From Candidatus Wolfebacteria bacterium (lineage in GTDB: Bacteria; Patescibacteriota; Minisyncoccia; UBA6257; UBA9933): 63,111 nt of DNA. A program made the position numbers and the translations under genes. The stretch is from positions 1-63,111 of the forward strand of contig JACRPK010000007.1 of the NCBI GenBank assembly GCA_016214005.1. Direction: 5' to 3'. Shown one piece after another: positions 49,389 to 52,893 of this stretch (the stretch's first letter is position 1; each line of letters opens with the position of its first letter). Under the pieces are notes generated by a model, which was not told the DNA's origin, ran no database searches, and saw nothing but the letters and a program-made list of their open reading frames with translations.

Positions 49389-49470
49389 GCTCTCGTGGCG
49401 GAATTGGCATACGCGCGGCGCTTAGAACGCCGTCCCGCAAGGGTTAGAGGTTCAAATCCTCTCGAGAGCA
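49389..49470 (+). tRNA. tRNA-Leu (anticodon UAG), class II
   Basis: Acceptor GCTCTCG/CGAGAGC, anticodon stem-loop CGGCG-CTTAGAA-CGCCG, a long variable arm, T arm AGAGG-TTCAAAT-CCTCT. Confidence 0.85.
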
Positions 49471-49521
49471 CAAGCGAACGAAGTGAGCGCAGTGAGCGAG
49501 TAGCTCCGCGAAGCGGAGCGT

Positions 49522-49611
49522 GAGGATTTGAAGGGTTCTATGAATTTTTCACTTTTGTAAAAAAATGAAAAATGAATTTAGAACCCAGGGACTAAATCCT
49601 CTCGAGAGCAC
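49522..49611 (+). repeat. tRNA-associated hairpin element, copy B: an inverted T-arm copy, the conserved core and a direct 18-nt duplicate of the tRNA-Leu T-loop/3' end (this copy ends ACCA)
   Basis: 49522-49532 (GAGGATTTGAA) is the reverse complement of TTCAAATCCTC. The core at 49530-49592 matches 10083-10144. 49594-49611 equals 49454-49471. Confidence 0.85.
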
Positions 49612-49778
49612 CAGCGCAGGGGATTGACTTTTCTGAAAAAGTATGCTATCAATAATTTAGTTCGTTCACAAAAACTTTCAGCGCAATTCCGCGCAATAAA
49701 AAGGAGGTAAATAAGGAAGATTTTGTTGAAATGGTTGTGTTAATAACTTTTAATTTTCTTTTTTCATCGGAGGATACA

Positions 49779-50897
49779 ATGAGCACTGCTATTGCTGAGG
49801 CCCTTGATAAGGCCAAGAAAAAGAAAGAAAACGAAGAGCAGAGGGTGGCTGTCGATGGTTTGGGTTTAAGCGGCGCCCAAAATTTGTTGAACGCCATTAG
49901 TGGCGCAAAACAGATAAAGCTCACGCCGGAAGAACTTTCCGCGAAAGCGGAAACCGACAAGGTCTTGCGCGAGGCGGCTCAACAGATGGCGGTCCAGATG
50001 GACGCCATGGAGGATTCGCTTAACAAGATAATGGCCGAAGCTGAAAAGTTTGGGTTGGATCTTGGTGAGCCGGGTTCCCAGCTTGGCAAAAAAGCCGAAG
50101 AAATCCAGATGGGGATCGATGACCTGCTCAAGAAAGCGCAAAGAGCTCTTTCCAAAGAGGATTTTGAGGCTTTTAAGAGTCGGGTGGAATTTTCACGCTT
50201 TTTAAACAGCGTGAAAAAGACGCCGCTGGAATCCGGGGCGATCATAGCCCAATTAGGGATCATAGCTAAGATTGGCCGTGGCAAACCGGTAAGGGTCGAA
50301 GACGCCCGCGACAATAGCGGGAAATTCCCGGAAGGCGCCCTGGTTTTTAAGGAAATCGCTCTTCTTCCGATTTCCTCTGGGATGCCCGGCGCAAACGGGC
50401 AGAGCAAAGCGGATTATGTTTTGTTCAATGCCATGCGCAACATCATCAAGGCTTTTTTCGAGGCCGAGCGCAAAGAAGAGGGAAGGTTAATGACAAAGAT
50501 GAGCGACCCGCAGATCGCTAACGGCAACCTGTCGTTTTTCCTTAAACGCGTTCCCGGGAAATACCTGGTGATGTTTGAAGGGAAACACGATGCTGGCACT
50601 GCCATTGTGGAGCTTGGGTTTCGCAATGGTAAGAAGGAGAACGAGCCCCAGATTGTCGTCTACATAGTGGACGGTGCTGGAGCGTTTAAGGCGCTTCGGC
50701 AGATGGAAGGGGTCTACATCCCTTTCTATTCTCTTTGGATCAAGAGTCGCGAAGAACGCGAACAGCGTATTGACGCGGCGATTCCCAAGAGCTTCGGTGA
50801 GGAAGAACTCGCCGTTGTTCAAAAGCTGGCCTATACCATCAGGATACAGACTGCTTCCTTGCGGGAACAATTCCGCAAGGAAAAGGAAGAAGCTTAA
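49779..50897 (+). CDS. Hypothetical protein (372 aa) of markedly higher G+C than its surroundings
   Basis: GGAGGATACA-ATG start context, with an alternative upstream ATG at 49731. A/E/K/G-rich helical N-terminal third. No family recognised. Confidence 0.65.
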   Translation: MSTAIAEALDKAKKKKENEEQRVAVDGLGLSGAQNLLNAISGAKQIKLTPEELSAKAETDKVLREAAQQMAVQMDAMEDSLNKIMAEAEKFGLDLGEPGSQLGKKAEEIQMGIDDLLKKAQRALSKEDFEAFKSRVEFSRFLNSVKKTPLESGAIIAQLGIIAKIGRGKPVRVEDARDNSGKFPEGALVFKEIALLPISSGMPGANGQSKADYVLFNAMRNIIKAFFEAERKEEGRLMTKMSDPQIANGNLSFFLKRVPGKYLVMFEGKHDAGTAIVELGFRNGKKENEPQIVVYIVDGAGAFKALRQMEGVYIPFYSLWIKSREEREQRIDAAIPKSFGEEELAVVQKLAYTIRIQTASLREQFRKEKEEA

Positions 50898-50921
50898 AAG
50901 GCTTCTTCCTAAACGAAAGAA

Positions 50922-50960
50922 AGGCTGGATCGCTTATAAAGCGCTCCAGCCTAATTTTTT
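50922..50960 (+). terminator. Rho-independent terminator after the G+C-rich orphan gene
   Basis: AGGCTGGATCGCT / AGCGCTCCAGCCT stem (one mismatch), followed by AATTTTTT. Confidence 0.7.
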
Positions 50961-50987
50961 AAGTTTTTCAAGAAAGGAGAGCAAGGG

Positions 50988-51536
50988 TTGAAAAGATTGA
51001 AAGATTTTCTTAAAAAGCTTTTGAAAAAACTTGTAAAAGAAGTTATTGAAGAGTCATCAGCCTTAACAGCTGAAAAAAGAATAGTTGTTTTTATTGATTT
51101 TGAAAACATAATAAAGAATCTTGAGTTCAATATTTCCATTGATTTTAAAAAGCTGAGAAGCATGCTTTTGGAAATCGGGAATATTGATTTTGTTAACGTT
51201 TATATTCCTTCGCATTTGATCGGATATGATGAAATGTTGAGGGAATTTGATGATTTCGGATGCAGATTTATTTATTGTCCGAAATCAGCTGTAAAAACAG
51301 ACACTATTAAGCTGGAAGATACGGTTGATATTCATATGATTAAAGACGCTCAATATTTCGCGCAATTCAAAGAAATTACAGGCCTTGTTATAATGAGCGC
51401 TGATAAGCATATGGTTCATTGTGTCAATGCTTTTAAAAACGACGGTAAGATTGTCCACGTTTGGACAAGCGGCAATATTTCGCCGTCGTTAAAAGCGACG
51501 AGCGATATTTTCGGAAAAGTTCCGATTAAAAAATAG
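50988..51536 (+). CDS. NYN/LabA-like (DUF88) domain protein, putative PIN-like ribonuclease
   Basis: VVFIDFENI..., ...DTVDIHMIKDA..., ...VIMSADKHM... fit the acidic-residue pattern of NYN domains. TTG start 9 nt after AGGAG. Confidence 0.65.
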   Translation: MKRLKDFLKKLLKKLVKEVIEESSALTAEKRIVVFIDFENIIKNLEFNISIDFKKLRSMLLEIGNIDFVNVYIPSHLIGYDEMLREFDDFGCRFIYCPKSAVKTDTIKLEDTVDIHMIKDAQYFAQFKEITGLVIMSADKHMVHCVNAFKNDGKIVHVWTSGNISPSLKATSDIFGKVPIKK

Positions 51537-51544
51537 TTTATAAG

Positions 51545-51586
51545 CGGGGTTTGGTTTTTATAGCCAACCCCGTTTTTCTTTTTTAA
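51545..51586 (+). terminator. Rho-independent terminator after the NYN gene
   Basis: CGGGGTTTGG...CCAACCCCG stem with one bulge, followed by TTTTTCTTTTTT. Confidence 0.65.
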
Positions 51587-51608
51587 AATTTTGTTATATT
51601 CTAAAACG

Positions 51609-52316
51609 ATGTATCAAATAAATTCCGGCCAGTTTTCCGGGCCGATTGAAAAACTTTTAAATTTAATTGAGGAAAAGAAATTGGAAATTACCGAGCTTAA
51701 TTTGGCGGCAATTACCGCTGATTTTATTGAATATTTAAAAAAAATAGAACAATCAAAAGCTCCGGAATTAAGATTTTTAGCGGAGTTTGTGGCGATTGCC
51801 GCGACTTTGATTTTGATAAAATCAAAGTCAATTTTACCGAGTATGGAATTAAGCGGCGAAGAAGAAAAAAATATCAAGGATTTGGAGGAACGTTTGAAAA
51901 TGTATGCGATTTTCAAACCGGCAATGGCGCTATTTAAAAATTTTTATGAGCGGAAGAACTTTTCCGTTTCCCGCCAATTATTTTTAAATTTTCAGCCGGT
52001 TTTTTATCCGGCCGCAAATGTTAGTCAAGAATCGTTGAAGGAACGGATGGAAAAAATTTTTTCGGATTTCAAGCAATTCGCGCTGGAAGAAGAAAAAATA
52101 GAAATGCCGCTTATCAAGCTTGAAGAAAAAGTTGCGGAAATTCTTAAAAGAATAGAATCCGGAGCTGGGAATTTTAATAATATTGTTTCAAATAAATCAA
52201 AAGCGGAAATTATTGTTTTATTTTTGGCTTTGCTTCATTTGCTTAAAGAGCAATTTATAAAAGTTGAACAAAATAACGGGTTTGATGATATAATAATTGA
52301 GAGTAATCGCGAATAA
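51609..52316 (+). CDS. scpA: Segregation and condensation protein A
   Basis: FSGPIEKLLNLIEEKKLEITELNLAAITADF is the typical ScpA N-terminus. Followed by scpB. Confidence 0.88.
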   Translation: MYQINSGQFSGPIEKLLNLIEEKKLEITELNLAAITADFIEYLKKIEQSKAPELRFLAEFVAIAATLILIKSKSILPSMELSGEEEKNIKDLEERLKMYAIFKPAMALFKNFYERKNFSVSRQLFLNFQPVFYPAANVSQESLKERMEKIFSDFKQFALEEEKIEMPLIKLEEKVAEILKRIESGAGNFNNIVSNKSKAEIIVLFLALLHLLKEQFIKVEQNNGFDDIIIESNRE

Positions 52317-52344
52317 TGCGAATTTAAAACAAAATAATGCAAAT

Positions 52345-52893
52345 ATGGAAAACCAAAAACAAAATTTAATAGCGGCGATTGAGGCGATTTTGTTCGCCTA
52401 TGGCGAGCCGATGGAAATAAAAAAAATCGCGAAAATTTTAAGCGCTTCGGAAGAAGAGGTTGAATTATCTTTAAAAGAATTTGAAGAAAAGTTAAAAGAT
52501 GAAAACAGAGGTTTAATGCTTATTTTAAGCGAAAACTCGGCGCAGCTTGCGACCAAACCGGAATTTTCCGAATTTTTGGAAAGTTTTATCAGGGAAGAAT
52601 TCAAAGAAAATTTGACGCCAGCCTCTTTAGAGACTTTGGCTTTAATAGCTTATCTTGGTCCGATTTCGCGGGCAAAAATAGATTATTTGCGCGGAGTTAA
52701 TTCAAGTTTTATTTTAAGAAATTTGATGATGAGAGGATTGATAGAGAGAATTTCCGGAAGTTACGAATATCAGGCAAGTTTTGATTTGTTAAAAAATCTT
52801 GGAATTTCAAAAATTAGCGAATTGCCGGATTTTGATAAATTTAAAGATTTTGCAAAAGAGCAGACAAAAGAACATTCTCAAACAAACGTATGA
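52345..52893 (+). CDS. scpB: Segregation and condensation protein B
   Basis: IEAILFAYGEP and the winged-helix repeats (LETLALIAYLGPISRAKIDYLRGVNS). Confidence 0.88.
   Translation: MENQKQNLIAAIEAILFAYGEPMEIKKIAKILSASEEEVELSLKEFEEKLKDENRGLMLILSENSAQLATKPEFSEFLESFIREEFKENLTPASLETLALIAYLGPISRAKIDYLRGVNSSFILRNLMMRGLIERISGSYEYQASFDLLKNLGISKISELPDFDKFKDFAKEQTKEHSQTNV

Follow-up and report, generated by a model that had tools for sequence, protein, structure and literature searches.

A fast-evolving, GC-rich gene and its NYN-domain nuclease partner form an accessory cassette in Wolfebacteria-type Patescibacteria

Why does a small, AT-rich genome carry one conspicuously G+C-rich (GC-rich) gene between a tRNA gene and a housekeeping operon, and why is it followed by a nuclease-like gene of quite ordinary composition? 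The two genes, here called X and NYN, lie in a window that is a whole 63-kb contig (C7; 63,111 nucleotides) of a 638,697-bp, 22-contig genome of 36.1% GC, whose host groups, judging by named relatives, with the Wolfebacteria-type Patescibacteria. An earlier note, made from the sequence alone, had proposed that the pair is a horizontally acquired two-gene system of the defense or addiction kind. We found that X and NYN form a self-contained, accessory two-gene cassette restricted to Wolfebacteria-type Patescibacteria, and that the GC-richness of X is an intrinsic trait of its family in every host, not the trace of a GC-rich donor. The parts of the cassette are as follows (aa, amino acids; ORF, open reading frame):

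49770..49775, plus strand: Shine-Dalgarno sequence GGAGGA of X, 3 nt upstream of its ATG (from the sequence)
49779..50897, plus strand: gene X, 372 aa, GC-rich, hairpin-packed and fast-evolving (ORF list, homologue alignments)
50884..50910, plus strand: 9-10-bp hairpin with the TAA stop codon of X in its loop (folding)
50922..50960, plus strand: GC-rich hairpin and U-tract between X and NYN, a putative intrinsic terminator or attenuator
50974..50979, plus strand: Shine-Dalgarno sequence AAGGAG of the NYN gene (from the sequence)
50988..51536, plus strand: NYN-domain (PIN-like) nuclease gene of the X-linked subfamily (Pfam PF01936, E 1.8e-11)

The strong Shine-Dalgarno sequence, the hairpin around the stop codon and the terminator after X had all been picked out at first reading and stand as described, and homologue alignments favored the start of X at ATG 49779 over an upstream ATG at 49731.

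The compositional contrast is real. X has a GC content of 0.50 and a GC content at third codon positions (GC3) of 0.58-0.60, against 0.36 and 0.33 for the genome. In 300-nt windows over positions 49850-50899, GC was 0.49-0.52 while the flanks ranged from 0.29 to 0.40, as had been judged by eye. Across the genome, 1-kb windows averaged 0.361 (standard deviation, sd, 0.043), with X windows reaching 0.513, and the 601 ORFs of at least 100 aa had a mean GC of 0.362 (sd 0.050) and a mean GC3 of 0.330 (sd 0.070). X is the most GC-rich ORF of at least 200 aa in the 639-kb genome, save for one 219-aa frame without a Pfam match (C4:86014-86673), which lies inside a block of 50-57% GC (C4:85751-88900) that we read as a putative rRNA region. 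Codon choice in X runs opposite to that of the genome (AAG 58% versus 14%, AAC 69% versus 18%, CGC 50% versus 24%), with ATC and GTC also among its preferred codons; the codon statistics thereby uphold the shifted usage, CGC included, that the earlier note had pointed out. The NYN gene, by comparison, is at the genome level (GC 0.33, GC3 0.324).

Codon adaptation to high expression was ruled out as the cause of this composition: a ribosomal-protein cluster, in a set pooled with one GC-rich tryptophanyl-tRNA synthetase (TrpRS) gene, sits at genome-average GC3 (0.326 versus 0.329), and the codon shift of X correlates negatively with that of the same pooled set (r -0.34). That the stretch is a structured non-coding RNA and not a gene was likewise ruled out, by a frame open over 388 codons, by the GC1/GC2/GC3 periodicity of the three codon positions and by the existence of protein homologues. 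Elsewhere in the genome, two isolated GC-rich ORFs, C1:27583-28161 (GC 0.55, GC3 0.66) and C12:360-839 (0.50, 0.53), have no Pfam match and AT-rich surroundings, and a GC-rich (0.478) TrpRS gene at C1:377-1549, identifiable from the motifs HIGH and KMSKS, carries an unusual extension at its N terminus. The long antisense ORFs noticed over X are also present (142, 127, 103 and 91 aa, minus strand, 49649-50870), and similar ones lie opposite the X orthologue of locus L003; they are an expected by-product of high GC and show no sign of being genes.

The same offset recurs throughout the family. In 14 of 14 loci, the GC3 of X is 0.10-0.28 above that of its companion genes at the locus, and at fourfold sites the excess is 0.01-0.21, in hosts whose local GC ranges from 0.35 to 0.51; four syntenic genomes of genus g2, themselves at 43-52% GC, show it as well. 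The GC3 of NYN, on the other hand, departs from that of its neighbors by -0.06 to +0.05 in nine of ten loci. These data bear on the most obvious explanation of the locus, i.e., recent horizontal transfer of X, or of X and NYN together, from a GC-richer donor as a tRNA-Leu island whose composition has not yet ameliorated. The gap in GC3 and the inverted codon preferences do make X look foreign in its genome, in agreement with such a transfer. However, the offset has the same direction in every locus whatever the GC of the host, the syntenic g2 genomes included. Moreover, a co-transferred pair would share its composition; NYN, which travels with X, has that of the host, and the GC excess is no sign of recent transfer. 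Nor is X an unameliorated import, because its orthologues are only 22-36% identical and the divergence is too old for DNA of that kind. GC-richness thus loses its value as evidence of acquisition.

What does hold is the pairing. The downstream gene is a true NYN gene, in keeping with the first reading of its translation: its product matches the Pfam NYN profile (PF01936) with 45.2 bits against a cut-off of 24.2, over profile positions 1-141 of 145, and it keeps residues of the active-site type, D37, N40, D111, D114 and D139 being invariant in seven X-linked NYNs and a canonical paralogue. Ten distinct loci, drawn from about six lineages, have X and then NYN with order and orientation unchanged (the window, L013/G010, L017, L015/G016, L014/G018, L016, L079, L081, L078 and L010/G161), and outside genus g2 every X has a NYN gene directly 3' on the same strand. 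Conversely, a profile of the X-linked NYN subfamily (E up to 1e-25) picked out four genomes among the 401 of the order, each of them X-bearing. Generic NYN genes are found in 48 of 51 genomes of the family; against Pfam, the X-linked NYNs score E 1e-8 to 1e-12 and the housekeeping paralogue ~1e-30, and no GC-rich partner or neighbor was found for the other divergent NYN paralogues of the family. With the neighborhood conserved and the NYN subfamily seen only with X, the proposal of a two-gene system is well borne out.

The X-NYN spacer measures 57-90 bp; L017 is the exception, its NYN overlapping X if the most upstream of the possible starts is taken. Each of six folded spacers (window, L013, L014, L015, L016 and L010) contains a perfect or near-perfect 12-17-bp GC hairpin (z -3.6 to -6.8), followed in five of the six loci by a U-tract; the structure is kept between loci and the sequence differs. 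In the window, the stop-codon hairpin and the spacer hairpin jointly fold at -39 kcal/mol (z -6.6). As a separate observation on NYN genes, three g2 genomes (G358, G365 and G001; 0.8-0.9 Mb, 43-52% GC) carry 5-8 NYN-domain genes each, versus 1-3 in most relatives, and one of these genes lies ~2 kb upstream of the solitary X in G358.

The cassette is patchily distributed, in line with the accessory nature first supposed. Profile searches found X in 8 of the 51 family genomes, representing 5 of 34 genera; among 359 genomes from other families of the order a single one carries it. X is absent from 43 of the 51, including the closest relatives by ScpA identity. Its contexts differ: tRNA-Leu and scpAB in the window, dnaX and DUF4015-scpAB in genome G018 (in the order dnaX, X, NYN, DUF4015, scpAB), and elsewhere tRNA-Ser and an S41 peptidase gene, DsbA or FtsH. 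The site occupied in G018 is empty in at least seven other genera, where dnaX abuts DUF4015 (~60 bp apart in the two spacers measured), and the cassette lies upstream of scpAB in two genera.

Around the cassette, the window contains the following neighbors and signals:

49389..49471, plus strand: tRNA-Leu(TAG) gene (ARAGORN; Rfam tRNA, 57.4 bits), context outside the cassette
49472..49616, plus strand: tRNA-associated hairpin element of 145 nt, a neighbor of the cassette and not a component
49624..49652, plus strand: promoter-like TTGACT-N17-TATCAA upstream of X (sequence reading), weak, its -10 hexamer lacking the final T
51545..51585, plus strand: terminator-like hairpin and T-run 3' of NYN, just before scpA (sequence reading)

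With scpA and scpB 3' of NYN and recO upstream on the opposite strand (Pfam), the pair does sit between tRNA-Leu and scpAB, as reported at the outset. It is the supposed link to the tRNA that fails. The 3' end of tRNA-Leu recurs as a 23-nt direct copy at 49594-49616 (the copy encodes CCA, the tRNA gene does not), and two exact 18-nt copies were found against 0.03 expected, with no third copy. However, the two copies bracket a 117-nt hairpin element upstream of X and not X-NYN, which rules out a tRNA-integrated island delimited by attachment-site (att) repeats; a direct-repeat scan of the window found no att-like repeats enclosing the pair. No integrase-like gene was recognized near the window cassette when the translations were read (the Pfam scan of these neighbors covered only recO, scpA and scpB), and the orthologous cassettes stand beside other genes. 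As for a target duplication, the G018 cassette is flanked only by a weak 22-nt AT-rich repeat of 73% identity. A phage origin of X was ruled out, as IMG/VR viral contigs hold no X relative. Hence, although the patchy distribution, the empty sites in relatives and a tRNA with a duplicated 3' end just upstream are what a recent transfer might leave behind, these findings together with the compositional ones make that explanation highly improbable.

Several smaller observations concern the surroundings. The promoter-like motif exists, ~11 nt away from the 49613-49641 originally given for it, and is weak; a consensus promoter scan did not call it, just as a terminator scan did not call the hairpin and T-run at 51545-51585. 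An Rfam search of the locus (E up to 1) matched the tRNA only. A GC hairpin lies at 49503-49519, just 3' of tRNA-Leu, followed by an inverted 14-nt copy of the tRNA-Leu T-arm at 49519-49532. In most family genomes dnaX faces DUF4015-scpA-scpB (window positions 51591-52893 compared with loci L064-L072), and in the host genome scpAB is separated from DUF4015 and dnaX, both of which are on contig C15, ~7.5 kb apart. Since scpAB here comes after recO, tRNA-Leu, X and NYN, the region has been rearranged.

If X is not a recent arrival, how does it evolve? Two loci from one groundwater metagenome, L013/L018 and L017, have downstream flanks that are 100% identical over more than 2 kb, yet their X genes are mosaics of 46-100% nucleotide identity. 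Between L013 and L017, synonymous divergence (dS) is 0.96 and nonsynonymous divergence (dN) 0.19 for X, against a dS of 0.37 for NYN and of 0.009 for the S41 peptidase gene. In the lineage of L079, L081, L078 and L016, X has a dN of 0.058-0.128 versus 0.001-0.011 for FtsH, with a dS 1.4-3 times higher than that of FtsH and a dN/dS of 0.14-0.20; in g2, the dN/dS of X is 0.23 versus 0.037 for the flanks. Divergent alleles between near-identical flanks are therefore seen both in L013 versus L017 and among L079, L081 and L078. Overall, the dN/dS of X is 0.14-0.23, which is 6-10 times that of its neighbors: X is under purifying selection and yet changes 10-50 times faster than the genes around it. 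Taken together with its patchy occurrence and differing contexts, these mosaic alleles in co-occurring strains establish X-NYN as a hypervariable locus. The allele differences are dispersed and transition-dominated, ruling out adenine-specific mutagenesis of the kind caused by diversity-generating retroelements. We also observed that L013 and L017 differ by a ~150-200-nt indel in the interval from NYN to tRNA-Ser (L013:5488-5530 versus L017:1766-1965), that only 144 nt of the L017 contig precede X and that several family members are on 1.5-4-kb contigs, as if assemblies tended to break at this variable locus.

The protein itself belongs to no recognized family, as the earlier note had said, but it is not the orphan it was taken for. 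Word-indexed protein searches returned almost nothing besides X, because low-complexity words dominate them. An exhaustive HMMER search of 1.84 billion representatives, in contrast, found 11 X relatives of 338-408 aa with 25-36% identity over the matched stretches, and with the profile searches the family reaches ~20 sequences at 22-36% identity, all from Patescibacteria. Those that are named are annotated 'hypothetical protein, Candidatus Wolfebacteria', and each of 10 representatives that were looked up is the sole or near-sole member of its 90% cluster (15 billion proteins). X had no real match to Pfam, NCBIfam or PDB sequence profiles. AlphaFold2 performed poorly on the single sequence (predicted local distance difference test, pLDDT, 48); with the 11-sequence alignment it gave a confident model (pLDDT 80, predicted template-modeling score, pTM, 0.62), in which X is predicted to have a disordered, K/E-rich N-terminal tail, then long helices spanning residues 50-146 and, at the C terminus, a domain of the alpha/beta type. 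Foldseek searches of this model against PDB and BFVD gave no match at E up to 0.001 (template-modeling, TM, scores at most 0.18). Few residues are invariant, namely R167 in a GRG motif, G260, Y262, G273 and a DGAG loop (G299, G301).

The message of X is packed with hairpins. As a folding control we permuted synonymous codons with the protein and the codon counts fixed, either across the gene or, in a local version, within 25-codon blocks. The window X mRNA had a z of -7.8 against the global shuffles and -6.1 against the local ones, and NYN-linked orthologues gave -12.7, -9.5, -8.7, -7.7, -6.5, -4.7, -3.6 and -3.3, so that z lies between -3.3 and -12.7 in 10 of 10 NYN-linked X genes; in the local version X genes spanned -4.8 to -10.2 and controls +0.9 to -2.2. 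By comparison, 22 random host genes had a mean z of -1.5 (sd 1.7). Their single outlier was the GC-rich TrpRS gene at C1:377-1549 (z -7.7), the sole other tested gene to fold far better than its synonymous shuffles, and it may be a second hairpin-packed gene of this genome. GC-richness alone was ruled out as the cause of negative z, since other GC-rich host genes gave -0.5 to -2.1, with no structure excess in the ORFs C1:27583-28161 (-0.5) and C12:360-839 (-0.9). For 12 of the 14 X genes that were tested, the native message folds 9-23% more stably than its synonymous shuffles, and as shuffles that keep GC and codon usage fold worse, it is the arrangement of bases, and not only GC, that is non-random. 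The structure is a chain of short-range hairpins of 7-14 bp, many of them perfect palindromes; helices of 7 bp or more number 13 in the window X and 23 in the L013 X. The start region is open (z +0.8 in the window, -2.5 to +0.3 in five orthologues), and these values do not support a structured or sequestered start.

Could GC excess and hairpins be mere by-products of recombination and mutation (GC-biased gene conversion, template-switch quasi-palindromes) in a gene whose protein is under diversifying selection? GC-biased gene conversion at a recombination hotspot is the main rival explanation for the GC excess: X alleles are mosaics between identical flanks, with a dS 1.4 to ~100 times that of neighbors, hairpin positions turn over, and recombining bacterial genes tend toward higher GC3 (Lassalle et al. 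2015, PMC4450053). Against this, NYN also recombines (dS 0.37 versus 0.009 in the flank) yet lacks a GC3 excess, the GC- and codon-preserving shuffles fold less well than the native gene, and the allele substitutions are ordinary, transition-dominated ones. We regard this explanation as unlikely, albeit worth serious consideration.

The folding results also raise the alternative that it is the RNA of X that works on NYN, be it as a decoy, an inhibitor or a processed RNA; the locus would then be partly type III-like, its antitoxin RNA also coding for a protein. As in ToxIN, a promoter is followed by a structured RNA, a terminator and an RNase gene, and the structure excess of X transcripts is extreme. 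X, however, is clearly protein-coding (the dN/dS given above, profile E values to 1e-136, a confident AlphaFold2 model), its hairpin positions are not conserved, a direct-repeat scan reported no tandem array in or beside it (Tandem Repeats Finder was not run), and NYN is not a protein of the ToxN/AbiQ fold. An RNA antitoxin therefore seems very unlikely.

Thus, we arrived at the tentative reading, possible rather than probable, that X-NYN is a conflict module, either toxin-antitoxin-like or abortive-infection-like, for which a defense or addiction role is plausible. The effector that degrades RNA would be NYN, and X would act as the cognate neutralizer or sensor, owing its specificity to its variable N-terminal and C-terminal parts. 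The hairpin after X would hold X output well above NYN output, and a GC-rich, hairpin-packed mRNA body with an open start would be long-lived and poorly cleaved by a single-strand-specific RNase, so that X might still be made while NYN is active. Recruitment of synonymous sites for G-C stems, possibly aided by GC-biased gene conversion at a locus that recombines, could then explain the GC3 excess. A more general form of this mechanism, which we consider doubtful, is a design principle whereby the synonymous codons of the partner gene give a G-C hairpin-chain mRNA that the adjacent single-strand-specific NYN cannot cut, leaving only the partner to be translated once the bulk of AU-rich mRNA has been destroyed.

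A number of findings weigh against a conflict module and its proposed mechanism. The main weaknesses are the X genes without NYN and the lack of a defense-database match. In the four g2 genomes, X occurs without a cognate NYN, always at the same site, which has an RNase-H-like exonuclease gene on one side and secD on the other; two of these X genes are structured (z -5.8 and -7.0), the other two not (-2.7 and -0.5), and since g2 X genes can be structured without a cognate NYN, neither structure nor GC excess is strictly NYN-dependent. Neither protein matched a defense system in PADLOC-DB 2.0 (best E 0.14 for X, no match for NYN), and in PHROGs there was a single short match to the coiled-coil stretch of X (E 2.4e-4), from a family with no assigned function. 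Across orthologues of 340-460 aa, no DNA-binding or antitoxin domain was recognizable in X; most X-linked NYNs have His where SxDxD has its second Asp; and translational coupling of the two genes is absent. Orthologues do not share their hairpin positions (38 coincidences versus 32.7 expected, P 0.17), leaving position-conserved RNA elements inside X unsupported, and the high dS of X is unlike what strong position-specific constraint on RNA structure would lead one to expect. Finally, the neighbors of the cassette are housekeeping genes and not defense islands.

These neighbors would suit a lineage-specific, non-conflict module of RNA metabolism or cell structure, in which an abundant cytoplasmic X would be made from a long-lived mRNA, NYN would be an RNA-processing enzyme working with it and variability would reflect relaxed constraint. 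The cassette sits among scpAB, dnaX, ftsH and secD, its position upstream of scpAB is shared by two genera, the mRNA suits high output (open start, structured body, 3' hairpin), and almost every genome of the family has a generic NYN gene. X, however, is missing even from the closest relatives by ScpA identity, mosaicism at strain level between identical flanks is unusual for housekeeping functions, and the dN/dS of X exceeds that of its neighbors severalfold, rendering such a module rather unlikely. The conflict module remains the reading we prefer.

Whichever function applies, the locus is a counter-example to reading a GC island beside a tRNA as a recent transfer, which is relevant to predictors of islands and horizontal gene transfer run on genomes of the Candidate Phyla Radiation (CPR). 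The defense repertoire of CPR bacteria is poorly known, and X-NYN adds a CPR-restricted cassette that combines a partner without a known fold with a dedicated NYN RNase and behaves like a conflict locus. X is also a natural case of structure selection over a whole coding sequence, linking mRNA design, RNase resistance and codon usage. Were the X message indeed RNase-proof, which we think improbable, gene-specific GC-richness in AT-rich genomes would mark RNase-proof messages and not foreign DNA.

How does X-NYN compare with known systems? By sequence, the X-linked NYNs belong with the NYN/LabA-like nucleases (PF01936), scoring above the curated cut-off and keeping the Asp/Asn residues, from which they differ as a divergent subfamily with His for the second Asp of SxDxD. 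The CRISPR-associated NYN of Bacteroides fragilis is a sequence-nonspecific, Mn2+-dependent endonuclease of single-stranded RNA (Chi and White 2024, PMC11346440). In contrast to that enzyme, X-linked NYNs are found only next to X, and not beside CRISPR genes or alone.

Among toxin-antitoxin (TA) and related systems, those of the CapRel type are fused sensor-toxin defense systems with a hypervariable sensing domain. X-NYN resembles VapBC- and CapRel-like systems in having two genes with the candidate neutralizer upstream of the RNase, in being patchy and mobile-looking, and in that its non-enzymatic partner is fast-evolving with variable terminal regions. Type II systems have a small upstream DNA-binding antitoxin (ribbon-helix-helix, RHH; AbrB; Phd; or helix-turn-helix, HTH), a description that the 372-aa X does not fit. 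Unlike VapBC, X (340-460 aa across orthologues) matches no known fold, no RHH, AbrB or HTH domain was found in it, and a terminator hairpin in a 57-90-nt spacer takes the place of coupled or overlapping genes. With type III TA systems (ToxIN, CptIN, TenpIN), the cassette shares the layout of promoter, structured RNA, ratio-setting terminator and endoribonuclease gene, its spacer hairpin corresponding to the terminator between antitoxin and toxin genes; its upstream unit, however, is a protein gene and not a tandem-repeat RNA, and the nuclease fold differs. Lastly, divergent mosaic alleles between identical flanks and assembly breaks at the locus are features shared with the replacement-type flexible (metagenomic) islands. 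Unlike those islands, which are usually many-kb clusters for surface structures, X-NYN consists of a single cytoplasmic protein gene and an RNase gene with a GC and hairpin signature of its own.

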